Below, one piece after another: positions 22,234-48,947 of a DNA stretch of 64,000 bases. Source of the DNA: an uncultured Planctomycetales bacterium. GTDB lineage: Bacteria; Planctomycetota; UBA1135; CAZZHK01. Below the pieces are notes generated by a model. It ran no database searches. It saw only the letters and a program-made list of their open reading frames with translations, and was not told where the DNA came from. The stretch spans positions 95,832 to 159,831 of the forward strand of contig CAZZHK010000004.1 in NCBI GenBank assembly GCA_964653725.1, read 5' to 3'. The translations under genes were made by a program, and so were the position numbers. Within the stretch, counting starts at the first letter, position 1. Every line of letters starts with the position of its first letter.

Positions 22234-23985
22234 ATGCTCCCGCAACGCGCGGCCCTCTGTCTTTGCGCCCTGCTCATGGCGCCCGCCGCCTGGAGTCAGG
22301 CCCCTCCCGGTGAATGGTGGCAGGGCGACCCGTTCGCTTTCGCCGCGTACGGCGCCGCAGTGACGGCGATTGACAACCTGGACCGCGACGGGCTGGACGA
22401 CATGGTGGTCGGGGCCCCGTTCGCGAACACGTCCGCCGGCCCCGACTCGGGCCGTATCCACGCCGTTTCCGCAGCAGACGGTCGGCTCCTGTGGACCCTG
22501 GGAGCCGAGGCCGAGGGAGAGCGGTTCGGCTCTGCCCTGGCACGCATCGGTGACGTGGACCGCGACGGCGTCTGTGATCTGGCGGTCGGCGCCTGGCGCC
22601 ACGGCCCTGACTGGTCGGGACGCGTCTATCTGGTCAGCGGACATGGCCGGGCCCTCTGGGCCGTGGACGGCGTCGGCGTGAACGAGGAGTTCGGCCGTGT
22701 CCTGTGCGGTCCCGGTGACCTGAACGGCGACGGGATCCCTGATGTGGCGGTCGGTGCGTGGCTGCACGACGGCGAGGCCGGCGAGAACGCCGGCCGTGTG
22801 GTGCTCTTGTCAGGCCACGGATTCGAGATCTCCCACCTGGACGGTCAGGCCCAGGGCGACTGGTTCGGGGCGTCGCTGGCTGCACCGGGCGACCTGGACG
22901 GCGACGGACTCGCGGATCTGCTGGTCGGCACGCCCCAGGCAGACGGTCCAGAGGGTCTCTGGAACGCCGGACGAGCCCAGGCCTTCTCGGGACTCGGCCA
23001 TGAGATCTTGCGCATGGACGGCCCGCTTCGGCGCGGTCGGCTGGGCACATCCGTCGCGGCGCTCGGCGACCTGGACAATGACGGCCGCTCCGAGACCGCT
23101 ATCGGCGCACCGGGTGCCGCCTACGGCGCCGGTCTTGTCGTCGTCGTAGACGCCCACGGCATGCCGCTGTGGACGCTTGCCGGAGGTGCGGAGGACGAGG
23201 CGCTCGGCAGCGCCCTGGCGGGCGGCGGGGACCTGGACGGCGACGGGCTGCCCGACCTGCTCGCCGGCGGACGCGAACTCGTCCGCGCCTTGACGGGGAC
23301 GGGCAATCCCCTCTGGACGGCGTCAGGTCCCGGCAGCGGCACCGGCTTCGGCAAGGCGCTGGCGATCCTGGACGACGTCAACGGCGACAACACCGCCGAG
23401 GCGGCACTCGGGGCGCCCTTCAGTGATGACCCCGCCTCGCTGCGGCCCCGCTCAGGCGTGCTGGAACTGCGCGCGGGCCAGGGTCCGCGCCTGTGGACTG
23501 CCGACGGTTCCTCCTGGGTGGCCGCCACGGCAGGCTGGGAGCCGCCGCCCACCGCCACAGCGGAGCCCGCCGACGACGGCGTGCGCCGCTACGGCCACGG
23601 CTGCTGGAACCTGGCCGCCACATGGCGCAACTCGCCCAACGTTTCCACCGACCACTTCGAGATCGGACTGCGAGGTGCGCCGCCCTTCGCCCCCGCCTTC
23701 CTTCTGGTCGGCGCCAGCGACTCCTTCTGGGGCGAGCACCCCCTGCCCCTGGATCTGGGCGCGATGGGCCGCATGCCGAGGGGCTGCGTCCTGTTCGCCG
23801 ACCCCGCCCTGCTGATCCCGATCACCACCGACGAGGACGGCCGCGCCGCCGCCCACATCCGCGTCTCGTCCGAGCCCTGGCTGGTCGGCGTCACGCACTA
23901 CGCCCAGTGGGCGGTGCGCATGCCCTGGCCCCACGCGTGGGGCTGGGCGCTCTCCGACGCCCTCCAAGTCACCGTCCGTCCGTAG
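22234..23985 (+). CDS. Secreted FG-GAP (integrin-alpha) repeat beta-propeller protein with a C-terminal beta domain
   Basis: Signal peptide ..APAAWS-Q; seven GD(L/V)(D/N)GDG..DL.VGA repeats; distinct ~130-aa C-terminal domain. Confidence 0.88.
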   Translation: MLPQRAALCLCALLMAPAAWSQAPPGEWWQGDPFAFAAYGAAVTAIDNLDRDGLDDMVVGAPFANTSAGPDSGRIHAVSAADGRLLWTLGAEAEGERFGSALARIGDVDRDGVCDLAVGAWRHGPDWSGRVYLVSGHGRALWAVDGVGVNEEFGRVLCGPGDLNGDGIPDVAVGAWLHDGEAGENAGRVVLLSGHGFEISHLDGQAQGDWFGASLAAPGDLDGDGLADLLVGTPQADGPEGLWNAGRAQAFSGLGHEILRMDGPLRRGRLGTSVAALGDLDNDGRSETAIGAPGAAYGAGLVVVVDAHGMPLWTLAGGAEDEALGSALAGGGDLDGDGLPDLLAGGRELVRALTGTGNPLWTASGPGSGTGFGKALAILDDVNGDNTAEAALGAPFSDDPASLRPRSGVLELRAGQGPRLWTADGSSWVAATAGWEPPPTATAEPADDGVRRYGHGCWNLAATWRNSPNVSTDHFEIGLRGAPPFAPAFLLVGASDSFWGEHPLPLDLGAMGRMPRGCVLFADPALLIPITTDEDGRAAAHIRVSSEPWLVGVTHYAQWAVRMPWPHAWGWALSDALQVTVRP

Positions 23986-24066
23986 CGCGAAGAGGTCCCT
24001 GCCGCTGCTGGCCGTTTGGCCCTTTCGAGGGCCCGCGAGAGCCTGTCTCGAGGCCCTTTGTTTCGC

Positions 24067-26811
24067 TTAAACGCCAGCAGGTGCAGAGGGCGTCGATTCT
24101 GGGTCGAGCCGGTAGGCGGCGGGGGTGGGCTTCAGGGGCCGCAGGAAGTGGAGGGGTCGGCGCAGGCCGCCGGGGCCGGGCGCGGGCTTCGTGTCGCGCC
24201 TCCACTGCTCATAGACCGCGCGCGACTTGGCGGTGTCGACCGACACGTCGCCCGGCTTGTCGCCGGACTGTGCGGGCGTCACCACCACCTTCTGGTGCCA
24301 GCAGTGCATGCCGCTGATCGGGTCGGGGTGGACCGGGAAGGTGAGGTTCTGGTGGACACCGCCGTCGGTCCAGAAGACCCGCGAGGAGTCGGGGTCATCG
24401 GACTTGTAGGCGCCCGGTCCGCGCCGGACGCGCAGGCTCACCCGGCTGCCCTTGCGCGACAGGTCCACCTCGCTGGACGACCAGCTCTGGGCCTGTGGGC
24501 CGCCCTTCAGCCTCCAGCGCCCCAGGTGATGGCTGCAGGCGACCACACCCGGCCGCAGGCCTTCCGTGACCCAGACCGGCACCACGAAGTGGCCGATGTC
24601 GGTGGCGACGCGCGCGGCGTCCCCCGTCGCCACACCGATCCGCTCGGCGTCTTGCGGGTGCAGCCACAGCGGGTTGGTGTGGCTGATCTCGTAGAGCCAC
24701 TTGGCGTTGCCCGACCGCGTGTGGATCAGGTTCGGCAGCCGGAAGGTCGGCAGCAGCAGGTATTCGCTCTTGCCTGAGTCGATCTTCGAAGGATGCACAT
24801 GGCTCTCGATGTAGCCCGGCAGGGTCTGATCCTCCCACCCCCACTCGGCCATGGTGGACGAGTAGATCTCGAGGCGGCCGCTGGGCGTCTCGAAGCCGCG
24901 CCGTCGCGTGCCGTCCCCCATGTCCACGCCGCCGCCGTCATCGACCTCCTCCTCGTGGCGCATCGTCGTCTCGCCCGGCACCGCGAACGCGCCCACGCGC
25001 CGCATGTATTCCAGCGGCTCCATGCCCTCGGCGGCGGCCGCCTCCGGCAGCCCCGGCACCGAGTTCTCGAACATCCACCGGTAGTGCTCGCTCGCGGTGA
25101 TGCGCTCCCCCTCGCGGTAGGGCGATTCGAAGTGCTGCCGGATGCCGCGCTCGCCGTCCGGGTCCATCCGCCAGGACAGCTCGGTCCAGAACTCGTCCTC
25201 CTCCCACACCTCGCCGGGATTGGTCTCGCTAGTGCGGTCGAACGATTCGCCCGCGCGCTCGCGATGCACCCGCATCACCGGCTGCCGGAAGCCGATCCAG
25301 CGGCCGGCGTGGGTCTCCTGGCTCATCAGGTCGTGGCGCTCGGTCGAGTGCCCCATCGGCAGCACGTAGTCGGCGAAGAACGCGGTCTCGTTCCAGGTCG
25401 GCGTCAGCGCCACGTGGCAGCCCACTTGGTCCTCGTCGGCCAGCATCTCCAGCCAGGAGCCGCCGTCGGGATTGGTCCAGACCGGGTTGTAGACGCGCGT
25501 GAAGTAGGTATCGATGCGGCGGCCCTGCTCGCGCAGCAGGTGCGGCAGCAGGAAGGAGAGTTCGTGGTGGCTGAGCGGCCACTGCTTCGGCCAGATCACC
25601 TCGTTCCAGCGCGAGTGCGGGGGCGGCTCGTTGGCCGCCTTCGGCACGAACTTGTTCCAGCGGTTGGGGGCCACGCCGCCCACCGTCCCCACCGCGCCCA
25701 TCAGGACCTGCAGGAAGTAGAGGCATCGCGCCACCTGCCAGCCGCCCAGGTTGCCCGAGGCCGCCGAGCGCCAGACGTGAGACGAGAAGGCCGTGCCAGC
25801 GTCACAGATCCCGTCCGCCACCTCGCGCAATTGCGCCGCTGGCACGCCTGACTCCGCCTCGGCGGTCTCGGGCGTCCACTCGCGGTACTGCTCGCGCAGC
25901 AGGTCCAGGAAGGCGGGAAAGGTCCGAGGGCCCTCGGGGCGGGCCGACGCCAGCCACTGTTCCCAATTGACCCACCGCTCTAGGAATTCACGGTTCTCGG
26001 CCTCGCGGCTGAGAATCTCGTGGGCGATCGCGAGCAGCATGGCCGCCTCGGTGCCCGGCCACGGCGCCAGCCAGTGGTCCGCCATCGACGCGGTGTTGGA
26101 GAGCCGCGCGTCGACCACGGCAATCTTGGCGCCCGCCGACTTGGCATCCATGATCCGCTGGGCGTGGGGGTTGAAGTAGTGGCCGGTCTCCAAGTGCGCG
26201 CTGATCAGCAGCATGAAGCGCGCGTTCTCGTAGTCGGGGCTCGGCCGGTCGTCGCCCGACCAGAGCGAGTAGCCCAGCCGCGCCGCGCCCGAGCAGACGT
26301 TGGTGTGCGAGTTGTGGCCATCGATCCCCCAGGCCTTCAGCACCCGGTCCATGGTGCCGTCGTGGCCCGGCCGGCCCACGTGGTACATCACTTCGTCGTG
26401 GCGGCCCTCGTCGAAGGCGGTCGTGATGCGGCCGGCCAGGTCATCCAGGACCTCGTCCCAGCCCACCTCCTCGAACTTGCCCGCGCCGCGTTTCCCGACC
26501 CGCTTCAGCGGATGGAGGATGCGGTCGGGGTCCTCCAGTTGGCTGAGCGTGGCCGGGCCCTTGGCGCAGTTGCGGCCGCGCGAGCCCGGGTGGCGGGGAT
26601 TGCCCTCGATCCGCGAGATCTGCCCCGTCTCGTGGTCCACGTAGCAGAGGAGCCCGCAGCCAGCCTCGCAGTTGAAGCAGATCGTCGGATGGAGCGAGTA
26701 GGTCCTCTCGACCTTTTCGGGCCACTTCTTCGCGTCCCACTCGCTCCATTCCCCCCACTCCTCGAAGGGCGGGTAGGCCGACAGTTCGCCGTCGTTGCTG
26801 GCCTGCGTCAC
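24067..26811 (-). CDS. Molybdopterin (bis-MGD) oxidoreductase catalytic subunit, Psr/Ttr/Arr-like; no TAT signal
   Basis: ICFNCEAGCG..NCAKG 4Fe-4S motif, DRILHPLKR, HTNVC, ADYVLP, GFETPSGRLE, C-terminal MGD-binding HP.DA..G domain. Confidence 0.9.
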   Translation of the reverse strand: MTQASNDGELSAYPPFEEWGEWSEWDAKKWPEKVERTYSLHPTICFNCEAGCGLLCYVDHETGQISRIEGNPRHPGSRGRNCAKGPATLSQLEDPDRILHPLKRVGKRGAGKFEEVGWDEVLDDLAGRITTAFDEGRHDEVMYHVGRPGHDGTMDRVLKAWGIDGHNSHTNVCSGAARLGYSLWSGDDRPSPDYENARFMLLISAHLETGHYFNPHAQRIMDAKSAGAKIAVVDARLSNTASMADHWLAPWPGTEAAMLLAIAHEILSREAENREFLERWVNWEQWLASARPEGPRTFPAFLDLLREQYREWTPETAEAESGVPAAQLREVADGICDAGTAFSSHVWRSAASGNLGGWQVARCLYFLQVLMGAVGTVGGVAPNRWNKFVPKAANEPPPHSRWNEVIWPKQWPLSHHELSFLLPHLLREQGRRIDTYFTRVYNPVWTNPDGGSWLEMLADEDQVGCHVALTPTWNETAFFADYVLPMGHSTERHDLMSQETHAGRWIGFRQPVMRVHRERAGESFDRTSETNPGEVWEEDEFWTELSWRMDPDGERGIRQHFESPYREGERITASEHYRWMFENSVPGLPEAAAAEGMEPLEYMRRVGAFAVPGETTMRHEEEVDDGGGVDMGDGTRRRGFETPSGRLEIYSSTMAEWGWEDQTLPGYIESHVHPSKIDSGKSEYLLLPTFRLPNLIHTRSGNAKWLYEISHTNPLWLHPQDAERIGVATGDAARVATDIGHFVVPVWVTEGLRPGVVACSHHLGRWRLKGGPQAQSWSSSEVDLSRKGSRVSLRVRRGPGAYKSDDPDSSRVFWTDGGVHQNLTFPVHPDPISGMHCWHQKVVVTPAQSGDKPGDVSVDTAKSRAVYEQWRRDTKPAPGPGGLRRPLHFLRPLKPTPAAYRLDPESTPSAPAGV

Positions 26812-26922
26812 AGCGGCATCCTAAGCGCTGGGACGGACCGTTTCCCCGCACCAAACAACACCCTCGTTCCATCCTGCACCAAGTCGTTCCGGTTAGGATG
26901 TTGGACTGGCAAGGACAAAGAG

Positions 26923-28626
26923 ATGAAGACCATTTCCCTGGGAACTGTCGCCGGCATCGCCGTCTGGGTCGCCACAACGGCTGGCGCGCAGAGCGTCCTG
27001 CACGTCATGCACGGCGAGACGGACTACGACAACCTGGGCCAGTCGGTCGCCGGTGCGGGCGACGTGAATGGCGATGGCTTCGCCGACTTCATCGTCGGCG
27101 TGCATCTGGATGACAACAACGGCAACAGCTCGGGCAGCGCCCGGGTCATGTCAGGCCGTACCGGCTCCCTGATCTGGATTTTCAACGGAGATTCGGTCGG
27201 CGACCAGTTCGGCTGGTCGGTCGATGGCGCAGGAGATGCAAACGGCGACGGACACGCCGACCTGATCGTCGGGGCCAGGAACGACGATCCGAACGGGAGC
27301 AACTCGGGCATGGCCCGCGTGTTCTCGGGCCAGGACAACTCCATCCTCTACTCCTTCGCCGGCGACAGCGGCGGCGACACGTTTGGCTGGTCGGTGGCCG
27401 GTGCCGGGGACGTCGATGCGGACGGATTCTCCGATCTGATCGTCGGTGCCAACGGGGACGACAACAACGGATCCAAGTCCGGAAGCGCCCGTGTCCTCTC
27501 GGGCCTCACAGGCAGCGTCCTCTATACATTCAGCGGGGATTCAGCGGGAGACGAGTTCGGCTACTCGGTGGACGGACTTGGCGACGTCAACGGGGATGGC
27601 TTCGGGGATGTCGTGGCGGGGGCGCCGGATGACGACAACCTGCTCTCCAATTCGGGCTCCATCCGGGTCCATTCGGGATTCGACGGATCCGTCCTGTACA
27701 TGATCGACGGCGACGTGCCTACGCAGACCAAGGGCGACCAGTTCGGCTTCGCGGTGGCCGGCACGGGTGACGTGAACGGCGACGGGGTGCCCGACCTGGT
27801 CGTGGGTGCTCCCTACGACGACAACAACGGCGACGCTTCGGGCAGCGCATGGGTGCTGTCCGGAGTGAACGGAGCGGCCCTGTTCGTGTTCGACGGCGAT
27901 TCGAGCGGCGACCACTTCGGCCGGGCCGTAGGCGGAGCCGGCGACGTGGACGGGGACGGCCTGGCGGATTTCGTCGTCGGCGCCAAGTACGACAGCATCG
28001 GTGGCCTCAACAACGGGAGCGCGCGCGTGATCTCGGCGCTCGGCTCCGAACTCTTCACGCTGACGGGCCCCACGGACTTCGACAATCTGGGCCACTCGGT
28101 GAGCGGCGCGGGGGACACCAACGGGGACGGCTTCGACGACGTCATCGTGGCAGCCCACCTGGCCGGCGAGACCGGCACCAACACCGGCAGCGCCTGGGTG
28201 CACTCAGGTGCGGGCCACGTGGCGACCAGCGGTTGGGGCTGCAACGGCTTCACGGCCAGCTGGCTGCACACCCCGCAGCTGCCGTCCGGCGACTTCACCT
28301 TCGTTTGCCGGTCCGAAACGGACATCAGCTTCTATGGCTTCACGATCAACATCGCCTTCAAGCCTCCGCTCGGCGGGCCGCTGGACCTGACGATCATCGG
28401 TGCGCCCGGCTGCACGCTCTGGGCCAATTTTCCCGGATCGTGGCTGTTCCCGGGCAACCCGGTCAGCACCACACAGGCGGAGACGATCGTGCCGTTGCCC
28501 GTCGACCCCTGGCTGGACGGGGCGGGTCCGTTCCTCGCCCAGTGGCTCATCATCCACCCCTTCGCGGGCTTCAATTCGTTGAAAGCGTCGCTCTCCGACC
28601 AGGTGTTGTTCACCCTGCATCTGTAG
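26923..28626 (+). CDS. Secreted FG-GAP repeat beta-propeller protein with a C-terminal beta domain
   Basis: Signal peptide ..TTAGA-Q; seven repeats FG.SV.GAGDVNGDG..D.IVGA..DD.NG..SGSARV.SG; C-terminal PLDL..GAPGC.L domain. Confidence 0.9.
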   Translation: MKTISLGTVAGIAVWVATTAGAQSVLHVMHGETDYDNLGQSVAGAGDVNGDGFADFIVGVHLDDNNGNSSGSARVMSGRTGSLIWIFNGDSVGDQFGWSVDGAGDANGDGHADLIVGARNDDPNGSNSGMARVFSGQDNSILYSFAGDSGGDTFGWSVAGAGDVDADGFSDLIVGANGDDNNGSKSGSARVLSGLTGSVLYTFSGDSAGDEFGYSVDGLGDVNGDGFGDVVAGAPDDDNLLSNSGSIRVHSGFDGSVLYMIDGDVPTQTKGDQFGFAVAGTGDVNGDGVPDLVVGAPYDDNNGDASGSAWVLSGVNGAALFVFDGDSSGDHFGRAVGGAGDVDGDGLADFVVGAKYDSIGGLNNGSARVISALGSELFTLTGPTDFDNLGHSVSGAGDTNGDGFDDVIVAAHLAGETGTNTGSAWVHSGAGHVATSGWGCNGFTASWLHTPQLPSGDFTFVCRSETDISFYGFTINIAFKPPLGGPLDLTIIGAPGCTLWANFPGSWLFPGNPVSTTQAETIVPLPVDPWLDGAGPFLAQWLIIHPFAGFNSLKASLSDQVLFTLHL

Positions 28627-28632
28627 CGGGGG

Positions 28633-30207
28633 TCAGCTGAGGGGGGGATCCTGGCCGGCGCAGATCCAGAGGTGTTCGTGGATCAGCAGGCCGGCGAGGG
28701 CGCAGCCGGCACCCCAGAGGGCCGCGGTGTCGAAAGAACCGCTGACCAGGACCAGCAGGATCGCGGCCACGTGACCAAGGCCGACCGAACCGAGCCAGAA
28801 GGGGATGCGGCCGGGCCCGTGGGTGACCCACGAGGCGGCGCGGCGCGCGTCGGGCGTCCCGCGATGCATCTGCCGCTCGCCGAGGCCGATCACCACCGCG
28901 TCCAGGACCAGGGCAAAGACCAGGACCTTGCCCAGGAACGGTGCGAGCTCCTCGGCGGCTGGCACCCAGGGCGAGGCCAGAAGCAGCGCGGCAGCGCCGG
29001 CAAATACCGACTGGACAGCCAGGTGCGGCGCCAGCAACGCGCTCTGCCAGTAGTCGCGCCCGCGCGCCTGATGGAACAGGAAGGCTGTGTAGACCGCGGT
29101 AGCGAGCGCGAATGCACTCAACGGCCAGAGCAGTGCCGCCGCCGCTCGCGACGCCCCCACCGCGCCCAAAGCCAGCACAGCGGTCAGCAGCGCGCCGTAG
29201 CCGGAGATGATCACCGCGCCGCGCACCAGCCAGGACTTCCACTGTGGACGGGTCAGGATGCGCAGGAAGCGCGCCGGCTGCTTCAGGTCACCCACCAGCA
29301 GCGCGCCGGTCAGCCCGAGGAACAGGACGCCGAGGCCGGCCGCCGCCGCCATGAACCCGTCGCCCTCCGTGCTCCCTCCCACCATCCGCACCAGGGCCGC
29401 CACCAGAACGACACCGGCCGAAATCCCCTTGGTCCAGATATAGGCGGAGACCCGCCAGCCCCAGGGCCGTTCGTGTGGCACGTCGTAGGTGACGCGCGCA
29501 TCTGCCAATGCCCGGGCCTCGTCCAGGTGTTTCCCCGAGGCCTTGGTCCACAGGCCCGCCGCGCCGATCGCCTGGCGGCCGCGGCGCTCCGCCGCGCGCT
29601 GACCCTGCTCCTGCGCCGCCATGTAGCCGGTCCCGCGATCGGCGGCGCCGGGATCCAGGTTCTGGGGGGCGGCCTCTTTGTAGAAGACCTTCGGCTGGGT
29701 GCCCTTCTCGGGCTTGCGCACGGTGACCGCCTCGCGCTCGATGAACTTCGAGATCGCGCTCTCAGGCTCGTCCAGGTCGCCCGACAGGATCGCCTGCTCG
29801 GGGCACACCACCTCGCAGGCGGGCTTCAGGCCCCGGTCCACCCTGTGTGAGCAGTAGTGGCACTTGGCGGCGGTCTGGGTGGCCGGATCGATGTAGAGCG
29901 CGTCGTAGGGACACGCCTGCATGCAGGCCTTGCAGCCGATGCACTCCTTGCCGTCGAAGTCGACGATCCCGGTGTCGCGCCGGAACAGCGCCGCCGTCGG
30001 ACAGATGTCCATGCAGGGCGCGTCCTCGCACTGGTTGCAGCGCAGAACTGAAAACGTGCGCTTGGCGTCAGGGAAAGCCCCCGTCTCCACGTACTTGACC
30101 CAGGTCCGGTAGACGCCCAGGGGAACGTCGTTCTCCTCCTTGCACGCCACCGAGCAGGCGTGGCAGCCGATGCAGCGGCTGTGATCGATGGCAAACCCGT
30201 AGCGCAA
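28633..30207 (-). CDS. Fused 4Fe-4S ferredoxin (NrfC/PsrB/DmsB) and NrfD/PsrC membrane anchor
   Basis: (M)RYGFAIDHSRCIGCHACSVAC, CNQCEDAPCMDICP, CIGCKACMQACP, KCHYC..PACEVVCP, then PWGW.V..Y and DL.QP.RF plus about 8 TM. TTG start at 30207 supported by TAGGCT 8 nt upstream. Confidence 0.9.
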   Translation of the reverse strand: MRYGFAIDHSRCIGCHACSVACKEENDVPLGVYRTWVKYVETGAFPDAKRTFSVLRCNQCEDAPCMDICPTAALFRRDTGIVDFDGKECIGCKACMQACPYDALYIDPATQTAAKCHYCSHRVDRGLKPACEVVCPEQAILSGDLDEPESAISKFIEREAVTVRKPEKGTQPKVFYKEAAPQNLDPGAADRGTGYMAAQEQGQRAAERRGRQAIGAAGLWTKASGKHLDEARALADARVTYDVPHERPWGWRVSAYIWTKGISAGVVLVAALVRMVGGSTEGDGFMAAAAGLGVLFLGLTGALLVGDLKQPARFLRILTRPQWKSWLVRGAVIISGYGALLTAVLALGAVGASRAAAALLWPLSAFALATAVYTAFLFHQARGRDYWQSALLAPHLAVQSVFAGAAALLLASPWVPAAEELAPFLGKVLVFALVLDAVVIGLGERQMHRGTPDARRAASWVTHGPGRIPFWLGSVGLGHVAAILLVLVSGSFDTAALWGAGCALAGLLIHEHLWICAGQDPPLS

Positions 30208-30244
30208 GGATGGCGAGCCTAGCGAGCCGCTAGGATCTTCCGCC
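30208..30244. promoter_or_regulatory. Bidirectional leaderless-type promoter (back-to-back -10 boxes)
   Basis: 37-bp gap: TAGGCT (minus strand, 30216-30221) 8 nt before TTG 30207, and TAGGAT (30231-30236) 8 nt before ATG 30245. Confidence 0.6.
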
Positions 30245-32184: not shown

Positions 32185-32194
32185 AATCCCCGCC

Positions 32195-33442
32195 ATGTCA
32201 CTGCGGATCGGCTTCGTCGGCGCGGGCTTCAACACCCGATTCCACATCCAGTCCCTGGTGGAGGTCCGCAACTGCGAGGTCGCCGGCGTCGCGAGCCGCA
32301 CCCTCGCGTCCGCGGAGTCCGCTGCGGGTCTGGCGCACGAGCTCGGCCTAGGTGAGGCGCACACCTTCGAAGACGTCGAAGAGATGGCCGCGGACGAGGG
32401 CATCGATGCCATCTGGATCAATGCGCCCAACGACTCCCGCGTCGCGGTGATGGAGTCAATTCAGGCCGGCAACGCCGGCCGCGACACGCCGTTGCTGGGC
32501 ATCGCCTGCGAGAAGCCGCTGGCGCGCAACTGCGTGGAGGCCGCCCGGGTGGCGGAAATCGCAGCCCAGATGGGCGTGCCGACCGGCTACCTCGAGAACC
32601 AGGTCTTCAGCCCCGCCGTCGAGCGCGGCAAGGAGGTGATCTGGGGCCGAGCGGTGCCGCTGACCGGGCGCCCCTACCTGGCGCGCGCCGCCGAGGAACA
32701 TTCCGGTCCCCACGCGCCGTGGTTCTGGCAGGGGCGGCTGCAGGGCGGCGGCGTTCTGAACGACATGATGTGCCACTCGGTCGAGACGGCGCGCTACCTG
32801 CTGACCGCGCCCGGCGCCCCGCGCTCCTCGCTGACCCCCGTGTCGGTCAGCGCGCAGATCGCGTCCCTCAAGTGGTCGCGCCCCGAATACGTCGAGCGCC
32901 TGAAGGCCGAGCACGGCGACGAGATTGACTACGCGAAGGCGCCCTCCGAGGACTTTGCCAGCGCGACCTTCACCTACGCGGACGAGGACGGACGCACCGT
33001 GATCAGCGAGGTCACGACCTCGTGGTCGTTCGTGGGTGCCGGCCTGCGCCTGTCCTTTGAACTGCTCGGTCCCGAATACTCGATGCGCGCCAACAGCCTG
33101 GACACCGGGCTCGAGGTCTTCCTCAGCAGGCGTGTGGCCGGCGACACCGGCGAGGATCTGGTGGAGAAGCAGAACGCCGAACAGGGCGTGATGCCGGTGG
33201 TGCCCGACGAGGCCTCGGCCTACGGCTACGCCGCGGAGAACCGCCACATGGTGCACGCCTTCCTCGCGGGCGAGGCTCCGCGGTTGACCTTCGACGACGG
33301 CGTGGCGGTGGTGCGGATGCTGATGGCCGCCTACCGCTCCGCCGAGACACAGGCCGCCGTCGACCCGCGCGACGATGGCCTTGCTGACTTCGTCCCCGCC
33401 GTCGCGCAGGGGACCTGGAACCCAAAGGATGGAAACGAATGA
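32195..33442 (+). CDS. Gfo/Idh/MocA family oxidoreductase (cytoplasmic)
   Basis: IGFVGAGF Rossmann fold, CEKPL, GGGVLNDMMCH. Confidence 0.88.
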   Translation: MSLRIGFVGAGFNTRFHIQSLVEVRNCEVAGVASRTLASAESAAGLAHELGLGEAHTFEDVEEMAADEGIDAIWINAPNDSRVAVMESIQAGNAGRDTPLLGIACEKPLARNCVEAARVAEIAAQMGVPTGYLENQVFSPAVERGKEVIWGRAVPLTGRPYLARAAEEHSGPHAPWFWQGRLQGGGVLNDMMCHSVETARYLLTAPGAPRSSLTPVSVSAQIASLKWSRPEYVERLKAEHGDEIDYAKAPSEDFASATFTYADEDGRTVISEVTTSWSFVGAGLRLSFELLGPEYSMRANSLDTGLEVFLSRRVAGDTGEDLVEKQNAEQGVMPVVPDEASAYGYAAENRHMVHAFLAGEAPRLTFDDGVAVVRMLMAAYRSAETQAAVDPRDDGLADFVPAVAQGTWNPKDGNE

Positions 33443-34692
33443 CGACGACGCGACGCACCTTCCTCAAGACCACGGGCGCCGCAGCCGCGGCCGCCTCCCT
33501 GCCTGCCAGCGCCTACGCGCGCGTGATGGGCGCGAACGAGCGCATCCACATCGGGGTCATCGGCACCGGTGGGATGGGGACCGGCCACGTGGACGCCTTC
33601 AGCCGCTGGCACAGCCTGGGCCACGGCGACGTGGACGTGACGGCACTGGCCGACGTCTGCCGCCCCCACCTGCAGCACGCGCACAGCGTCGCGACCGGCA
33701 ACCAGGAGGGTGCAGAAGTCGCCACCCACCGCGACTATCGCGAACTGCTGGACCGCAGCGACGTCGACGGCGTGGTCATCGCCTCGCCGGAGCACTGGCA
33801 TGCCCAGATGTCGATCGACGCGATGGCAGCGGGCAAGGACGTGTACTGCGAGAAGCCGATGACGTTCCACCTGTCGGACGCCATCCGGGTCCTGGATGCG
33901 GCGAAGGACGGCAGCCAGGTGTTCCAGGTCGGCACCCAGCACGTGAACCAGCGCAAGTACCACGCGGCGAAGGAGATCGTGGACTCGGGCGCCGCCGGAC
34001 CGCTGGTCTGGAGCCAGACGTCCTACTGCCGCAACAACCCGACCGGTGAGTGGCTCTACTACGCCATCGACCCCACGGTGGTGCCAGGCCCGGAGCTGGA
34101 CTGGAAGGCCTGGTGCGGTCCGCAGGGCGAGGTCCCCTTCGACACCAACATCTATCACCGCTGGCGGCGCTACAGCGCCTGGTCCACCGGGATCATCGGC
34201 GACCTGCTGGTACACGTCGTCACCCCGATGGTCTGGGCGATGGGCCTCGGCTGGCCGACGCGCATCCAGGCCACCGGCGGCCACTACGTCGACAAGGTGA
34301 TGGACAACTTCGACCAGGTGAACCTGACCGTCCAGTGGGGCGACCGCCACACGATGATCGTGGCGGGCTCGACCTCCAACGAGCGCGGCCTCGAGCCCAT
34401 GATCCGCGGCCACAAGGCCAACATCTTCCTGCAGGGCAAGGACGTGGTGGTGCGGCCCGAGCGCGTCTACGCGGATGACGTCGACGAGCAGCGCATCGAC
34501 TGCGAGCCGGTGAGCGACCATCTCGAACACCGCAAGCACTGGCTGAACTGCATGCGCGAGAGGACCGAGCCCCTCTCGAACGCCGAGTTGGGCGCCCAGT
34601 TGATGGTCATGGTGGACTTGGCCGCCCGCTCCATGTGGGAGGGCCATACCTTCGCCTTCGATCCCGAGTCGCGCACCGCGAAGGCCCTCTGA
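33439..34692 (+). CDS. TAT-exported Gfo/Idh/MocA family oxidoreductase
   Basis: TRRTFLK twin-arginine signal, GVIGTGGMG, IASPEHWH, DVYCEKP, QVGTQ, DLLVH. Confidence 0.9.
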   Translation: MTTTRRTFLKTTGAAAAAASLPASAYARVMGANERIHIGVIGTGGMGTGHVDAFSRWHSLGHGDVDVTALADVCRPHLQHAHSVATGNQEGAEVATHRDYRELLDRSDVDGVVIASPEHWHAQMSIDAMAAGKDVYCEKPMTFHLSDAIRVLDAAKDGSQVFQVGTQHVNQRKYHAAKEIVDSGAAGPLVWSQTSYCRNNPTGEWLYYAIDPTVVPGPELDWKAWCGPQGEVPFDTNIYHRWRRYSAWSTGIIGDLLVHVVTPMVWAMGLGWPTRIQATGGHYVDKVMDNFDQVNLTVQWGDRHTMIVAGSTSNERGLEPMIRGHKANIFLQGKDVVVRPERVYADDVDEQRIDCEPVSDHLEHRKHWLNCMRERTEPLSNAELGAQLMVMVDLAARSMWEGHTFAFDPESRTAKAL

Positions 34693-34754
34693 GCCGGACC
34701 GCCGCAACCCAGGCGGTCGGCGACCGAACGGTCGTACGGCTGGCGCGCGCGGCC

Positions 34755-35567
34755 ATGGCCACGCGATTCGAGTTCGTGCTGGTCGGCACCGACGGCTCGC
34801 AGCTGCGAGCGGCCGGCGAGCGGGCGCTCGACGAGGTGGCGGCCTGGGAGGGCCTGCTGAGCCCCTTCCTGCACGGCTCATGGGTGTCGCGCCTGAACCG
34901 CGACGCAGTGGCGGGCCCGGTCACGGTCCCGGCAGAGGTGTTCGCATTCCTGCATCGGTCTGTCGAGTTGTGGAGGGAGACAAGCGGCGCCTTCGACCCC
35001 ACCGTCGGACCGTTGATGGCGGCCTGGGGGCTGCGTGGTGCGGACGAGGCGAACGAGGAGGCCCGTGCCGCCGCTGCCGCCTCCGTCGGCATGGACGGGG
35101 TGGTCCTCGACACGGCCACACGGACGGTGGCGTACACGCGGCCGAACATGGCGCTGGACGTGGGCGGGGTGGCCAAGGGCTGGGCGCTGGACCGGGCCGC
35201 CGAGGCCATCCGGGAATCCGATGCGGTCGTGAACGGCTTCCTGCTGCACGGGGGGACCTCGACGGTGGTTGCAGCCGGTCGCGACGCCGAAGGCCGCCCG
35301 TGGCGAGTGGGCGTGGCCTCTCCGGCAGATCCGCAGACAGTGACCGAGACAGTGGATCTCGCCGACAGTTCCCTGTCCGTCTCGGCACCCCACGGACGCA
35401 CATCAAGCACGGGCCACCCGCATGTGATGGATCCCCGCTCCGGCCGGCCGGCTGAGGCCTGTCCGCTTGCGGTCGTGACCGCCCGCGACGCCACAACAGC
35501 CGATGCACACTCGACCGCGCTGCTGGTGGCCGGCGGAAGCGAGGCCGCTAGATTGGACCTCGCATGA
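34755..35567 (+). CDS. apbE: FAD:protein FMN transferase (ApbE family), no obvious signal peptide
   Basis: GAFDPTVGPL..W, DVGGVAKG, LSVS, HVMDPRSG, ADAHSTA. The frame is open back to ~34689, so the start is uncertain. Confidence 0.85.
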   Translation: MATRFEFVLVGTDGSQLRAAGERALDEVAAWEGLLSPFLHGSWVSRLNRDAVAGPVTVPAEVFAFLHRSVELWRETSGAFDPTVGPLMAAWGLRGADEANEEARAAAAASVGMDGVVLDTATRTVAYTRPNMALDVGGVAKGWALDRAAEAIRESDAVVNGFLLHGGTSTVVAAGRDAEGRPWRVGVASPADPQTVTETVDLADSSLSVSAPHGRTSSTGHPHVMDPRSGRPAEACPLAVVTARDATTADAHSTALLVAGGSEAARLDLA

Positions 35568-36829
35568 GTGACTCCGGCATGAGCGGATTCGGCGTTGACC
35601 GCCGCACGTTCCTTACCCATGCAGCCACCGGCCTGGCCGCCGTGGCACTGTCGCCTGATCTGGCAGCGCTGCTGCCGCCGCGGCCGCGTGGCAAGCAGGT
35701 CGGCATCGGACTTGTCGGCTGCGGCCGCCAGGGCCGCAAGATTCTTCGCGAACTTGCCAAGATCGAGGGCTGCCGCGTGGCTGCGGTCTGCGATACGGAC
35801 GGCCGACGCCTGAAGCGGGCCGGCCAGATCGCGGGCGACGGCGCAGAGTCGTTTGCCGACGCCGCCGCCATGCTCGCGGACGCCAAGGGCGTGGACGCGG
35901 TGGTCATCGCCACGCCGACCCACAAGCACCTGGAAGTCACCCTCGCCGCCATCGAGGCCGGGCGCGCGGTGTACATCGAGACACCGCTAGAGAACACCAA
36001 TGAGCGAGCCGGCGCCCTGGCCCAGGCTGCCGCATCCGCCGGTGCGCCGGTCGCGGCCGGAGCCACCGCCCGCACCAACCCTGTCTACAAGCTGGCCCGA
36101 TCGTTCCGCCGCTCCGGCGCCATCGAGGACGTGGTCAGCGTTCGCGCCCAGTGGATGGACAAGACTTCATGGCGCACGGCCGCCGGCGATCCGGTCCGCG
36201 ACAAGGCCCTCAACTGGAAACTGGACCAGGACGTCAGCCTGGGGCTGCCAGGCGAGATGGGCTGCCACGCGTTCGACCTGCTGCACTGGTTCTGCGGCAT
36301 CCAGCCGACCGCGGTCACAGGCGGCAGCGCCGTGGTCTTCCACCACGACGGCCGCAAGGTCGCCGACACCGCCCATCTGAGCCTGTCCCTGCCTCGAGGG
36401 GCGCACATGACCTGGGAGGCAAGCCTGGCCAACTCATACGACGGGGAACTGGCGGTGATCCGGGGCACGGGCGGCACCTTCCGCCTGGCGGAAACCCATG
36501 CGTGGCTCTTCAAGGAGGCCGACTCCCCCACCCAGGGCTGGGAGGTTTACGCCCACCGCGAGATGGTCGGCAAGGAGCAGGGCATCGTCCTGATCGCCGA
36601 CGCCACCAAGTTGGCGGCGCGATCCAAGCTGGAGGAGGGGATCGGTCTGCCGCATCCGCCGCTCTACTACGCGCTCCACGCCTTTGTCACCGCAGTGGCC
36701 GAGGGCGGCGAACCCGGCTGCACGGTGGTGGACGCCCTGCCGGCGACATCCGTGTCGGTGTGGGCGGCCCACGCCGCCCGATCGGGCGAGCGGATCCCGC
36801 TCGGCCCTGGACCCGAGGGGCCCAAGTGA
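35564..36829 (+). CDS. TAT-exported Gfo/Idh/MocA family protein with altered EKP motif
   Basis: DRRTFL twin-arginine signal, GLVGCGRQG, IATPTHKH, YIETPL, EMGCH. Confidence 0.85.
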   Translation: MSDSGMSGFGVDRRTFLTHAATGLAAVALSPDLAALLPPRPRGKQVGIGLVGCGRQGRKILRELAKIEGCRVAAVCDTDGRRLKRAGQIAGDGAESFADAAAMLADAKGVDAVVIATPTHKHLEVTLAAIEAGRAVYIETPLENTNERAGALAQAAASAGAPVAAGATARTNPVYKLARSFRRSGAIEDVVSVRAQWMDKTSWRTAAGDPVRDKALNWKLDQDVSLGLPGEMGCHAFDLLHWFCGIQPTAVTGGSAVVFHHDGRKVADTAHLSLSLPRGAHMTWEASLANSYDGELAVIRGTGGTFRLAETHAWLFKEADSPTQGWEVYAHREMVGKEQGIVLIADATKLAARSKLEEGIGLPHPPLYYALHAFVTAVAEGGEPGCTVVDALPATSVSVWAAHAARSGERIPLGPGPEGPK

Positions 36830-37599
36830 TCCGCAGAGCCCTCCCTGCTGCCGCCCTCCTGCTCGGCGCCTGCACGGCGCAGGAGCCCATCGCGGCAGAA
36901 CCCACCCGTGTGCTGGTCTACGTCCAGTCGGCGGGCTACGAGCACGGCGTCGCCAAGCGCGCGGAGCAGGACGGCCTGAGCCTGGTCGAGCGCCAGTGGC
37001 AGGCCTGGGGTGGCGAGGACGACCGCCTTGCGGTGACTTGCTGGGATCCGGCCACCCCGTTCACAGCCGAGAGGCTGGAGCGCTTCGACGCGGTCTTCTT
37101 CTACACGACCGGCGAACTGCCTGTCCCGATGGAGAGCCGCCAGGCGCTGCTCGCCTGGGTGGACTCCGGCGGCGCCTTCACCGGTGCCCACTGCGCCACC
37201 GACACCTATTACGAGTGGGCACCCTGGGGCGACCTGATCGGCGCCTACTTCGATGGCCACCCCTGGCACGAGGAAGTCCGGGTCACCGTCGAGGACGGCG
37301 CCCACCCCTCGACCACACATCTGGGGGACTCGTTCGCCATCACCGACGAGATCTACCAGTTCAAGTCGCCCTACGCGCGCGACCGCCTGCACGTACTGCT
37401 GACTCTCGACACGTCGTCCGTGTCCCTCGACAAGCCAACTGTCAAGCGCACGGACGGTGACTTCGCGATCAGCTGGACGCGTGAGCAGGGCGAGGGCCGC
37501 GTCTTCTACACGGCCATGGGCCACCGCCCCGACGTCTGGCAGGACCCCCGTTTTCGGCGCCATCTCATTGAAGGCGTCCTCTGGGCTGCTCGCCGATAG
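36826..37599 (+). CDS. ThuA-like (trehalose utilisation) domain lipoprotein
   Basis: Lipobox LLGAC; GYEH, FYTTGE, GG.F.G.H.ATDT, FDGHP, DEIYQF, GRVFYTAMGH. Confidence 0.85.
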   Translation: MIRRALPAAALLLGACTAQEPIAAEPTRVLVYVQSAGYEHGVAKRAEQDGLSLVERQWQAWGGEDDRLAVTCWDPATPFTAERLERFDAVFFYTTGELPVPMESRQALLAWVDSGGAFTGAHCATDTYYEWAPWGDLIGAYFDGHPWHEEVRVTVEDGAHPSTTHLGDSFAITDEIYQFKSPYARDRLHVLLTLDTSSVSLDKPTVKRTDGDFAISWTREQGEGRVFYTAMGHRPDVWQDPRFRRHLIEGVLWAARR

Positions 37600-37650
37600 C
37601 GGGGCTCCGGTAGGGTGGGGAAGGACCCAAGGCCATTCCAGGAGGATGCC

Positions 37651-39354
37651 ATGCCGCTGTTCTTCGCCGCCCTTCCCCTCTTCATCCCGCAGCAACCGCT
37701 TGCCGAGCGGACCGTCGCCATCACCACGCCCGCAGGCGTTTTCTACCGGAACGATGCGGCTGGCACACCGTCAGCGCACCGGACACCGCCGTTGCTGCCG
37801 GTTACCGCGCCCGGTCTGCGGTGGACCGAGTACGACAACGGGCTCTCATGGATCTGCCGCTCGGTCGGGATCAGTGACGACGGGCAATCCGCCTGGCTGG
37901 GCAAATACCTCAACAACGAGGAATTGACGTTGTCGGGCATCCGAGACTTCTCGGCTGTCCAGCCGGTCTGGGCCGACGTGGACCCGGGCCTCTTGTACAC
38001 ATCCGTCTGGCAGAACGTGGACGGGGCACGAGGTGGTGACGGCGCCATTGTCGGCGTGTGGCAGCAGCAACTGGGCACCGCTGGCCCGCCTCCGTTTGCG
38101 GAGATTCGTCTCTACCGGCGAGGCTCGAGCACACCCGTGGCCGCTTACCAACCGAATGCGCCCTGGGACGATCAACTGCCGGACGTCGGGATCTCTCGTG
38201 ACGGATCGCTCGCCGTTGCAGGAATGGGAGTCTATGGAGGATCCCTGTCCACCTCGGACATCTGGGTCTTCGAGCCCCTGTCGTCCTCGCCCGGGATTCC
38301 CATCCTTCAGTTCTCTGTCCCGGGAAGCAGCAGTCTTCGCGAACTCGACCTGTCGGAAGACGGCACCAGGCTGCTCGTGGCGAGCGGCAATACGGTCACG
38401 GTGGCCGACACCGCCACGGGCGCCGCACTCCATTCGTACGGGACGGTGGGCATTGACGCGCATGCAATCGACTACGACGGCGACACTGCGGTTCGCGGCG
38501 GTTTTGACGTCGAGGCCTGGCGAGAAACGAGTTCCGGATCCTGGACCAAGATCCTCGACTGGACGACGGCCGAGACGCCCGTCGGCATTTGGGTCTACGA
38601 CGCGATCGACGTCTCTCCGGACGGCATGACCATGGTTGTTACCGGCCGTATGTCCTCGAATTCGTCGCGTGTCCGCGTGTGGGGCTTCGACCTGTCGGGC
38701 ACAGTCAGCAGCCCGGCCTGGGAATGGAAGAGCGACGGATTCGGTGGCTACCAGGATGTACCGGTGGCCGTGGCTTCGGATGCCGAGGGGAACTCCTTCG
38801 CCGTCGGGTTCTGGGGCGACGAGTTCAACGCACACGAGGAAGTCATGGTCTTCGACGGTGCACTCGGGACGGTTCTGCAAACGCTCGACACCCCCGGCTC
38901 TGTCTTCGATCTCGAAATGTCGCTCGACGGCCAATTCATTGCCGTTGGCACAAAGGCCGTGCATGCCAACACCTTTGGCAACGGAGGCGAGGCGTACTCG
39001 CTGGATGCCGGCGGCCGGGACCTGACGATCCGCGGCGCCACGGCGCTGGGGCGGACGGTCCAATTCGAAGTGGACGGACCCACTGGCGATTTCGCGGTCC
39101 TGCTGACCGGGGCGCCAATGGCACCGTTGCCTCTCTCCGGGATCTCCGGGACCCTCGAGGTGGACCCCGGCATCATGAAGATGATCGCGCTCGGTCCGCT
39201 GCCCGCAGGCGGGCTCGTCCTACCGGTGACGGTACCCGCAGGCGACATGTCCCTCGTGGGCGGATCCACCATCCACTGCCAGACCTTGCTAATCGCGGGC
39301 AACCTATCCGCGGCCTCACTGACGAACGCGATCCCGGTCGTCTTCTACCCCTAG
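37651..39354 (+). CDS. Secreted WD40/YVTN-like beta-propeller protein with a C-terminal beta domain
   Basis: AGGAGG SD upstream; short signal ending PQQ; repeats ISDDG, ISRDG, LSEDG, VSPDG, MSLDG; C-terminal domain ending LTNAIPVVFYP. Confidence 0.75.
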   Translation: MPLFFAALPLFIPQQPLAERTVAITTPAGVFYRNDAAGTPSAHRTPPLLPVTAPGLRWTEYDNGLSWICRSVGISDDGQSAWLGKYLNNEELTLSGIRDFSAVQPVWADVDPGLLYTSVWQNVDGARGGDGAIVGVWQQQLGTAGPPPFAEIRLYRRGSSTPVAAYQPNAPWDDQLPDVGISRDGSLAVAGMGVYGGSLSTSDIWVFEPLSSSPGIPILQFSVPGSSSLRELDLSEDGTRLLVASGNTVTVADTATGAALHSYGTVGIDAHAIDYDGDTAVRGGFDVEAWRETSSGSWTKILDWTTAETPVGIWVYDAIDVSPDGMTMVVTGRMSSNSSRVRVWGFDLSGTVSSPAWEWKSDGFGGYQDVPVAVASDAEGNSFAVGFWGDEFNAHEEVMVFDGALGTVLQTLDTPGSVFDLEMSLDGQFIAVGTKAVHANTFGNGGEAYSLDAGGRDLTIRGATALGRTVQFEVDGPTGDFAVLLTGAPMAPLPLSGISGTLEVDPGIMKMIALGPLPAGGLVLPVTVPAGDMSLVGGSTIHCQTLLIAGNLSAASLTNAIPVVFYP

Positions 39355-39390
39355 ACGGCCCGCCGCCATTTCTCGGGGCACCACCAGCCC

Positions 39391-40872
39391 CTAGGGCTGG
39401 TAAGTCTCGACATCGAGCGGGCCGCCACCCACCAGCATCACCGTGCCGTCGGGCAGGGTATGGCAGAGCGGGCCGAGGCGCGGCCAAGCCATCGAGCCGG
39501 TCGGGCTCCAGGCGTCGTTCTGCAGCACGTCGCAGGTCTCCGACACGACATACACGGACGCCAGGGGATCGCTGGCATCGAAGTAGAGATCCAGGCCGCC
39601 CACGACGAGCGCCCCGCCTCCGGGCAGGGGAGCCAGGCCCGCCAGGGTCCGCCCACTGGACATGCCCGCCACCGTCTGGAAACTGCCAAAGAAGCCGTCC
39701 GTGTAGATCTCGCCATCGTCACGGGTCTCGACTACCACCTGGGTCAAATCGCCCGATGTGATGACTCCGCTCAAGTCTAGACCCAGGCCGCCCACCACCA
39801 GGGCCCGCCCATCATCAAGCGCCACAGCCGAGTGCATGAAGCGCGGCGCTGCCATCAGCTTCGGCAAACTCCAAGTCCCGAAGGTCGGGTTATAGATGTA
39901 CGCGGTATTCGACACCGTCGGCAGATTGATGAACGGAATGAGGGTGATGCCCCCGGCCACCATGACCTTGCCGCCTGTCAACGTGGTCTGGGTGTGCATG
40001 GCACGCGGCTCCAGCATCAATCCGCCGCCCGAAAACGAGTCGGTGGAAGGATTGAATATCTCTGCAGAAGCCTGGACGCCCGATAGGAACGCAAGGACAT
40101 CCGTCAGGTCAAAGACCGAGAAGCCTCCGGTCACCAGCACGCGCCCGTCATTCATCAAAGAGGCGGCATGGCCAGCCCGAGGTGCCGCCATCTGGATGAT
40201 CGTTGTCAGCCCGGTATCCGGGTCAAACAGGGCGGCCTCAGCGGCCGGCGCGCCGTCCAAGCCGATGCCGCCCGCAAAAAGGATGCGGCCATCGGCGAGC
40301 ACCGTCGCCGTGGACAGGGCCCCCGCCCCGATGCTGATGCCCACGTCCTCGAAGTCCTCCAGCCAGGGCAGGTAGCGGCGCACCAGAAGGCCCGAGCCGC
40401 CGGCAATGATGACGCTGCCGTCCGGCTGGGTGGAGGCCGCACCGGCCCCGAGCGGGACAATCGGCAAGTTCAGGATGCGGGTGACCGTCCCGGGCGCAGC
40501 AGGCGTCACGCGGCAGAGGTTGCTGACCGCGTCTAGCCCCGCCCCCTGGATGGCCTGGAAGGACAGCACCACCTGGGCCAGGGTCGGGTCGTCGGGAAGG
40601 GCAACGATCCCGCTTGCCTGGCCGCCCCCGTCAAGGAATCCGAAGAAGCCGGGCAGCATGAACGTGAAGTCCAGGAAATCCAGATTGACTTCCAACGTCA
40701 CCCCCGGCGCGATGGGGGTCTGTTCCTCCTCGATCGCGCCCACGATCAGGTAGAGTTCGCCAGCCTCCCCCGTGACTTCCAACGTGGTGGCACCAGGCAA
40801 CGCTCCTCCCACGTGCCGCAACTCCAGACCCTGCGCCAGGACTCCAGCCAGGATCAGCGAGACAGCGTTCAT
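39391..40872 (-). CDS. Secreted Kelch-repeat (galactose-oxidase-like) beta-propeller protein with an N-terminal beta domain
   Basis: Signal MNAVSLILAGVLAQ; repeats PR..H.A..L.DGRVLV.GG, AE.F.P. Confidence 0.82.
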   Translation of the reverse strand: MNAVSLILAGVLAQGLELRHVGGALPGATTLEVTGEAGELYLIVGAIEEEQTPIAPGVTLEVNLDFLDFTFMLPGFFGFLDGGGQASGIVALPDDPTLAQVVLSFQAIQGAGLDAVSNLCRVTPAAPGTVTRILNLPIVPLGAGAASTQPDGSVIIAGGSGLLVRRYLPWLEDFEDVGISIGAGALSTATVLADGRILFAGGIGLDGAPAAEAALFDPDTGLTTIIQMAAPRAGHAASLMNDGRVLVTGGFSVFDLTDVLAFLSGVQASAEIFNPSTDSFSGGGLMLEPRAMHTQTTLTGGKVMVAGGITLIPFINLPTVSNTAYIYNPTFGTWSLPKLMAAPRFMHSAVALDDGRALVVGGLGLDLSGVITSGDLTQVVVETRDDGEIYTDGFFGSFQTVAGMSSGRTLAGLAPLPGGGALVVGGLDLYFDASDPLASVYVVSETCDVLQNDAWSPTGSMAWPRLGPLCHTLPDGTVMLVGGGPLDVETYQP

Positions 40873-46712: not shown

Positions 46713-46811
46713 CGGGGGATTCGGGGATTGACGCGGCAGGCGGAAGAGGTGGAAGATGGGGGGCTCGCAGGGGGACGAGGGGTGCCGGGAAACCGCAGAC
46801 GAGCAGAATTC

Positions 46812-48947
<2,136 letters not shown>

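Follow-up and report, generated by a model that had tools for sequence, protein, structure and literature searches.

Four exported proteins encoded within a 64,000-nucleotide stretch of contig CAZZHK010000004.1 from an uncultured Planctomycetales bacterium (the window, with a G+C content of about 69%) each carry, at one end of the chain, a copy of one large and uncatalogued domain family of about 125-140 amino acids (aa). Judged from the gene sequences, this domain tags dozens to more than 100 unrelated, Sec-exported proteins per genome in certain lineages of the Planctomycetota. Most often it forms the very C-terminus, in fewer cases it comes immediately behind the signal peptide, and it is probably a shared localisation handle.

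One domain family on four proteins of the window

The genome that holds the window (G000; 2.25 Mb in 27 contigs, 89.5% complete) encodes the four proteins, here P1 to P4, in reading frames that are open at the coordinates below, and all four alike begin with a signal-peptide-like hydrophobic stretch. Their domain segments are called P1c, P2c and P3c where C-terminal and P4n where N-terminal. Support is given as expectation values (E, or i-E for the independent value) from Pfam or from the profile hidden Markov model (HMM) of the family and, for P1, also as the predicted local distance difference test (pLDDT) of an AlphaFold2 (AF2) model.

22234..23985, + strand: P1, exported FG-GAP propeller protein of 583 aa with a Sec-type signal peptide (Pfam FG-GAP, 3e-33)
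23551..23982, + strand: domain copy of P1, aa 440-583, core subfamily, both conserved cysteines (HMM E 7e-40 to 7e-36; AF2 pLDDT 93.1)
26923..28626, + strand: P2, exported FG-GAP propeller protein of 567 aa with a signal peptide (Pfam FG-GAP, 3e-46)
28189..28623, + strand: domain copy of P2, aa 423-567, C-terminal, core subfamily, both cysteines (HMM E 1e-24, and 6e-23 after further iteration)
37651..39354, + strand: P3, exported protein of 567 aa, probably a beta-propeller (sub-threshold WD40/propeller-type Pfam hits only)
38938..39351, + strand: domain copy of P3, aa 430-567, C-terminal, divergent and without the cysteine pair, ending ...VVFYP (25.6 bits, E 1.1e-5 while still outside the model)
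39391..40872, - strand: P4, exported Kelch propeller protein of 493 aa (Pfam Kelch_4 8e-14, Kelch_6 4e-12)
40477..40869, - strand: domain copy of P4, aa 2-132 in an envelope that takes in the signal peptide, N-terminal, divergent and without the cysteine pair (i-E 0.058, then E 4.2e-5, not in the model)

The last 130-145 or so residues of P1 to P3 and the first 130 or so of P4 are covered by no Pfam or NCBIfam model. Compared directly, P1c and P2c share 26% identity over 117 aa (33.9 bits, E 5e-7 in a database of the four sequences only), every pair that involves P3c or P4n stands at E 0.15 or worse, and a word-indexed search with the P1 domain returned P1 itself as its sole match. This direct similarity is weak, and the four segments are tied together via intermediates only, the links being made by profiles. 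Searched alone against the six-frame open reading frames (ORFs) of the genome, P1c matched 13 others (E 3e-24 to 3e-7), all at their C-terminal ends, one match ending some 17 residues before the stop codon, and the iterated HMM converged at 36 ORFs.

The two divergent segments were scored with HMMER filters off. P3c reached its 25.6 bits before it had entered the model, and P4n scored 13.6 bits at the first pass, against 9.3 bits for the top reversed-sequence decoy, and 23.8 bits after one more iteration, still outside the model, against a top decoy of 12.4 bits. Profile-profile comparison by hhalign matched P3c to the Cys-less C-terminal copies (79% probability, E 1.6e-5) and P4n to the N-terminal copies (82%, E 1.1e-5), and the three subfamily profiles (Cys-pair C-terminal, Cys-less C-terminal and N-terminal) matched each other at about 98% each, while P3c and P4n gave no match when aligned directly by hhalign. 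P4n is the weakest-supported of the four copies. Across subfamilies that share only about 20% identity, the loop motifs P..P.L.G and then ..Q are kept.

An earlier note, drawn from the letters of the window and their translations, had proposed by eye that four unrelated secreted propellers share an unnamed terminal module. The module itself is borne out by the profile HMM, by hhalign and by the strand order of the AF2 models described below, and the motif string given for it corresponds to the conserved blocks of the profile consensus. The description of its bearers holds in part: Pfam identifies P1 and P2 as FG-GAP proteins and P4 as a Kelch protein, but P1 and P2 are of the same type, and a propeller is weakly indicated for P3, which matched no Pfam family at E<=1e-4.

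Copies, cargo and distribution

Counting ORFs at i-E<=1e-3 in the final HMM iteration, where reversed decoys scored no more than 12.4 bits, we found 53 copies of the domain in the genome, one per protein and on at least 17 cargo types. Forty-one copies are C-terminal (no more than 6 residues from the stop), nine are N-terminal and three are internal or unclear. The N-terminal copies start directly behind the signal peptide, include P4 and both other Kelch proteins, and all come from divergent Cys-less subfamilies, while both conserved cysteines, which presumably form a disulfide in this core subfamily, are present in 14 copies, every one of them C-terminal. A signal-peptide-like N-terminus was flagged in 44 of the 53 proteins by a crude heuristic that misses P2, whose translation shows one, and that is also permissive (583 of 1,456 candidate genes flagged).

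The cargo is diverse, with Pfam hits from at least 17 families in 33 of the 53 proteins and no hit in the other 20. FG-GAP repeats lead with 11 proteins, followed by Kelch with three and by Beta-helix, Matrixin (M10), PETase/chlorophyllase-like and DUF7948 with two each. Eleven further types occur in a single protein: cupredoxin; EB_dh with cytochrome c; reprolysin with C-type lectin; GSDH; DUF2961; metallo-beta-lactamase with LTD; M28 peptidase; lysyl oxidase; sortilin/BNR; a lactonase-type propeller; and a sub-threshold PQQ_2 hit.

In composition the domain is acidic: its median net charge is -6, and Lys+Arg make up 1.5% of it as against 4.3% of the adjacent cargo. The P1 copy extends to the final residue of its chain (...VTVRP), and proline is the last residue in 25 of the 41 C-terminal copies, typically as ...IQP, compared with 137 of 1,557 other coding-like ORFs (8.8%), these counts not being independent samples because the copies are paralogues. 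Among the 149 best database representatives the last residue is Pro in 34, Arg in 28 and Gly in 15, and the tallies therefore point to a chain end that is conserved within lineages.

Many domain genes are found no more than a few kb from a contig end (C3:246, C16:2, C18:2, C11:4112, C15:3776, C19:3048, C7:3266, C20:34651, C26:3737), and three short ORFs (L011, L043 and L046) hold part of the domain only; the assembly may be interrupted at such paralogous copies, so that the true number may exceed 53. Two neighbouring paralogous genes, L023 (G000:C18:3761-4381) and L029 (4759-5400), encode 203-aa proteins made up of a signal peptide, a Cys-containing stretch of about 70 aa and one domain copy, with no recognisable cargo. 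A 615-aa protein (P0311) between the domain genes of contig C7, which by eye seemed to end in a divergent copy, was rejected at an hhalign probability of 0.3%.

Beyond this genome, of 1.84 billion cluster representatives 33,902 matched the profile at E<=1e-3, and 7,796 still did so at E<=1e-10. In 142 of the best 149 representatives the domain is C-terminal, and in the remaining seven it comes straight after the signal peptide, with no Pfam family matched in the 300-660 residues beyond it. Genomes of the same order were positive in 30 of 31 cases, with 12 to at least 138 matches each (the single negative genome is 91% complete). An even sample of the phylum gave 17 of 81 genomes with 15 to at least 52 matches and 64 with none, such that the distribution within the phylum is all-or-none with high copy number. 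The sampled class is made up of this one order only, and the class-level sample was searched at 1e-25, too strict a threshold for presence counts. None of five genomes from other phyla was positive (two Myxococcales, one Hydrogenedentota, one Gemmatimonadota and a metagenome-assembled genome (MAG) of Fimbriimonadaceae).

The nearest ESM-Atlas clusters are labelled 'hypothetical protein', have no Pfam family and come mostly from Planctomycetota. Source names of homologues cover the cargo only ('integrin alpha', 'PQQ-dependent sugar dehydrogenase', 'S8 family serine peptidase', 'hypothetical'), and nearly all taxon labels read Planctomycetota or Planctomycetes bacterium, with one MAG protein labelled Neolewinella. 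The HMM search that the earlier note had suggested for this genome and for other Planctomycetota thus returned many hits, and with them a terminal position and co-occurring signal peptides. Its expectations of a terminal bias on diverse signal-peptide-bearing cargo, tabulated here for 53 copies, and of restriction to particular lineages, seen in the order, the phylum sample and the five outside genomes, both agree with these counts.

Predicted fold, known terminal modules and searches for machinery

Structure prediction places the domain in a generic immunoglobulin (Ig)-like beta-sandwich class, with eight to nine strands and a short helix. The AF2 model of P1c, built on an alignment of 50 copies (pLDDT 93.1, predicted template modelling score 0.87), has four strands, the helix and four more strands, and the model of P4n (pLDDT 81.5) has the same order of elements. 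Foldseek against the PDB returned no match at E<=1e-3. VIA-align gave top matches of Z 8.0 for both P1c (2vsd_A, root-mean-square deviation (rmsd) 2.6, 89 residues aligned; 524 chains at Z>=5) and P4n (2pn5_A, rmsd 2.8, 92 aligned), with generic Ig, FN3 and macroglobulin-type sandwiches as the only neighbours of either model and 13 entries in common between their top-50 PDB lists. Since Z values near 8 are common among unrelated sandwiches, these matches indicate a fold class and not kinship. A proposed check by AlphaFold and Foldseek was hence informative for the strand order that P1c and P4n share, but returned only generic sandwiches as neighbours.

The prediction that the domain is unnamed stands for the InterPro member databases covered, Pfam and NCBIfam, and for the PDB, with no entry matched: no Pfam or NCBIfam hit is common to any two of the 50 copies even at E<=10, a profile search of PDB sequences gave a best E of only 0.09, and in literature searches, including the accessible part of PMC11685898, no description of the domain was found.

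The accessible part of PMC11285876 describes the T9SS (type IX secretion system) C-terminal domain (CTD) as a compact 3+4 beta-sandwich of seven strands. Like the type A CTD of Bacteroidota (TIGR04183/PF18962, Por_Secre_tail), the present domain is a predicted Ig-like sandwich that forms the very end of many Sec-exported proteins otherwise unrelated to each other, is lineage-restricted and is found tens to hundreds of times per genome. It differs in being longer (125-140 aa, eight to nine strands plus the short helix) and, with nine of 53 copies N-terminal, in not being strictly C-terminal, and SprA was not found in any of three domain-rich genomes (see below). Three T9SS CTD models (TIGR04183, TIGR04131 and PF18962) matched none of the four proteins and none of the 50 copies at E<=10, comparison by hhalign with two TIGR04183-positive tails gave a probability of 0.1% (a small profile and hence a weak test), and no T9SS CTD stood among the top structural matches listed for P1c and P4n.

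A second likeness is to Soli_cterm (TIGR03437, an NCBIfam 'paralog_domain'), also a lineage-specific paralogous domain that closes many different exported proteins. It is longer (225 positions, compared with about 130), its model matched none of the 50 copies at E<=10, and hhalign against six TIGR03437 segments gave 0.2%. The two domains meet in the DUF7948/SBBP cargo family, where Soli_cterm occupies the end at which the homologues in our genome carry the present domain. In other lineages, two homologues checked end in a T9SS CTD and six of six checked have Soli_cterm at the very end, and dockerin (PF00404) closes two of 120 listed DUF7948 homologues, of which one bears the label Planctomycetota. 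The unnamed domain therefore sits where localisation-type modules are placed elsewhere. One of five domain-negative planctomycete genomes has DUF7948 homologues, one with a LamG-type end and the other without a Pfam match after its SBBP repeats.

S-layer homology (SLH) domains and type I dockerins, found at either terminus of exported proteins of diverse kinds, keep these on the cell surface non-covalently. The present domain resembles them in its placement at either end and, by analogy, may resemble them in holding proteins at the surface. It is a beta-sandwich, unlike them, and no cohesin-like or polymer partner was found for it; the Dockerin_1 and SLH models gave no match (for dockerin, 0 of 50 copies at E<=10). 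PEP-CTERM tags combine a short motif with a transmembrane helix and, after that, a basic tail. They too are common terminal tags on many exported proteins with a patchy distribution among lineages, but the present tag is a folded domain of 130 aa with 1.5% Lys+Arg and no terminal hydrophobic helix, its sequences ending in a beta-strand and then zero to three residues, and exosortase was found neither in our genome nor in eight of the 17 domain-positive genomes. Carbohydrate-binding modules (CBMs) were represented among structural matches by BhCBM56 (Z 6.7, rmsd 3.5, 88 residues aligned), a generic similarity, and no Pfam CBM hit was obtained in the 50 copies. As far as sequence comparison goes, the domain is unrelated to the T9SS CTD, Soli_cterm and dockerin.

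Co-occurrence tests for a dedicated machinery covered the SprA and exosortase families. For T9SS the search was for SprA only, other T9SS components not being searched. Its absence from the genome that holds the window was uninformative alone, 14 control genomes likewise lacking a match, so Bacteroidetes controls were added. SprA_N (PF14349) was then found in both of two Bacteroidetes control MAGs (E about 1e-41) and in none of three domain-rich genomes (G000; G023, a single contig of 6.6 Mb; and G004). Exosortase (PF09721) was present in 31 of the 81 phylum genomes, namely nine of 17 domain-positive and 22 of 64 domain-negative ones, and its presence shows no link with that of the domain in either direction.

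Gene neighbourhoods gave no candidate either. The neighbours of P1 to P4 in the window include no machinery-like gene and are ordinary housekeeping and metabolic genes (glycine cleavage, methionyl-tRNA synthetase, CTP synthase, TatC, Rho, a paralogue of elongation factor G (EF-G), GFO/IDH/MocA oxidoreductases and a molybdopterin oxidoreductase). On contig C7, in the island where domain genes are most densely clustered, no machinery genes stand beside them; this island holds sulfatases, which are without the domain, an arylsulfotransferase, further FG-GAP proteins and a nitroreductase. The co-occurring or co-located machinery that had been anticipated was consequently not found in the window, in the C7 island, among three genomes for SprA or among 81 for exosortase.

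Several neighbouring features of the window are listed for reference.

1215-2684, - strand: radical SAM/SPASM-domain protein at the start of the window
24067-26820, - strand: molybdopterin oxidoreductase, frame of 917 aa
28633-30480, - strand: one protein fusing a 4Fe-4S dicluster domain to an NrfD-type membrane subunit, frame of 615 aa
30203-36826, + strand: run of sugar-oxidation type, with a 3-keto-disaccharide hydrolase, a nucleoside/H+ symporter-family transporter and three GFO/IDH/MocA oxidoreductases (one with a twin-arginine (TAT) signal)
46728-48944, + strand: EF-G-like protein

The minus-strand pair around P2, which lies on the opposite strand, has the look of a Psr/ACIII-like module interrupted by an unrelated gene. 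The EF-G-like protein is probably a divergent EF-G paralogue by its sequence, with at most about 54% identity over full-length matches among the best 80 loci (one genome per prokaryote species) and a few shorter partial matches at 57-60%.

Candidate roles at the cell envelope

The reading that we tentatively favour, on analogy with surface-holding modules, is that the domain may be a position-tolerant handle keeping cargo at the cell envelope. Cargo would first be exported by Sec, after which the domain, at either end of the chain, would bind a common envelope component non-covalently, be it a glycan or a protein receptor, such that propellers, proteases, esterases and redox proteins would be retained at the surface; the domain would not be a cleaved C-terminal secretion signal. 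We favour docking over a cleaved tag because the domain occurs at either end and because no T9SS or exosortase link was seen. The nine N-terminal copies, P4 among them, count against an export signal of the T9SS or PEP-CTERM kind, which would be C-terminal, and are more in keeping with a module for docking or anchoring. The analogy to these two systems that the earlier note had drawn consequently survives in the similar deployment on diverse cargo and in the DUF7948 homologues, but not in the N-terminal copies or in any link to SprA or exosortase.

Several points weigh against a position-tolerant handle. No binding partner, receptor or ligand of the domain was found. The restriction of all 14 Cys-pair copies to the C-terminus would also fit a tag that is read from the free C-terminus, as would the conserved chain end, often a proline, and the N-terminal copies, being all divergent and Cys-less, might have a different role. 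The strong acidity of the domain, moreover, is unfavourable to its direct electrostatic attachment to anionic polymers of the envelope.

Some of these points lead to a reading that we consider rather unlikely, namely that the domain is an address tag for an uncharacterised outer-membrane translocation or attachment system working by the logic of the T9SS CTD, possibly being cleaved while the cargo is released or covalently attached. High copy number with an all-or-none phyletic distribution, the extreme C-terminal position of most copies in this genome and in the database, and a DUF7948/SBBP cargo family that bears the T9SS CTD in other lineages all speak for such a tag. It is the core subfamily, always C-terminal and with conserved last residues, that keeps it alive. 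The copies behind signal peptides (nine of 53 in the genome and seven of 149 representatives) sit poorly with it, as do the absence of SprA from domain-rich genomes when both Bacteroidetes controls were positive, the lack of machinery genes next to domain genes in the window and the C7 island, the exosortase counts, and the failure of T9SS CTD models to match. A more specific and likewise doubtful version would place a non-T9SS system at the outer membrane, with the Cys-pair copies (free ...IQP-COOH) as the true tag and the Cys-less copies as derived binding modules.

Less probable again, and in our judgement distinctly unlikely, is an outward ligand-binding module, carbohydrate-binding or adhesin-like, that tethers cargo to particles, algal polymers or other cells and not to the envelope of the producing cell. 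Its size, beta-sandwich fold and placement at either terminus are CBM-like, a Pro/Thr-rich stretch precedes the P1 domain, the weak structural neighbours include BhCBM56, the C-terminal domain of GH158 and adhesin Ig domains, and the C7 domain genes lie amid sulfatase genes. Those sulfatases lack the domain, however, the structural matches are all generic (Z<=8), Pfam CBM models match none of 50 copies, and the cargo is mostly not carbohydrate-active (cupredoxin, cytochrome c, pyrroloquinoline quinone (PQQ) dehydrogenase, metalloproteases, lysyl oxidase). With so few carbohydrate-active enzymes in it, the cargo suits a substrate-binding module less well than it does a general localisation handle.

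That the domain is a passive Ig-like module, capping or spacing exported proteins so as to stabilise them, for instance against proteases, without a specific partner, is very improbable: the generic fold, a low Lys+Arg content that would resist trypsin-like proteases and the three internal or unclear copies suit it, but a spacer would be expected between domains or in tandem arrays and not as one nearly always terminal copy per protein, a mere stabiliser would not usually be distributed all-or-none, at 12 to at least 138 matches in a genome, and the P..P.L.G and ..Q loop motifs are kept despite the low identity between subfamilies.

How proteins are placed on or beyond the unusual envelope of the Planctomycetota is poorly understood, and a domain estimated to label roughly one in every 40 genes here (from 53 copies in 2.25 Mb at an assumed density of about one gene per kb) may bear on that question. 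The all-or-none pattern, with 17 of 81 genomes positive, offers a clean contrast for finding its partner by phylogenetic profiling. Its bearers, in this genome and in the 33,902 matched clusters, give a ready inventory of the proteome that these uncultured marine lineages export and probably keep associated with the surface. Naming the domain would improve annotation, given that databases now label such proteins by their cargo only.

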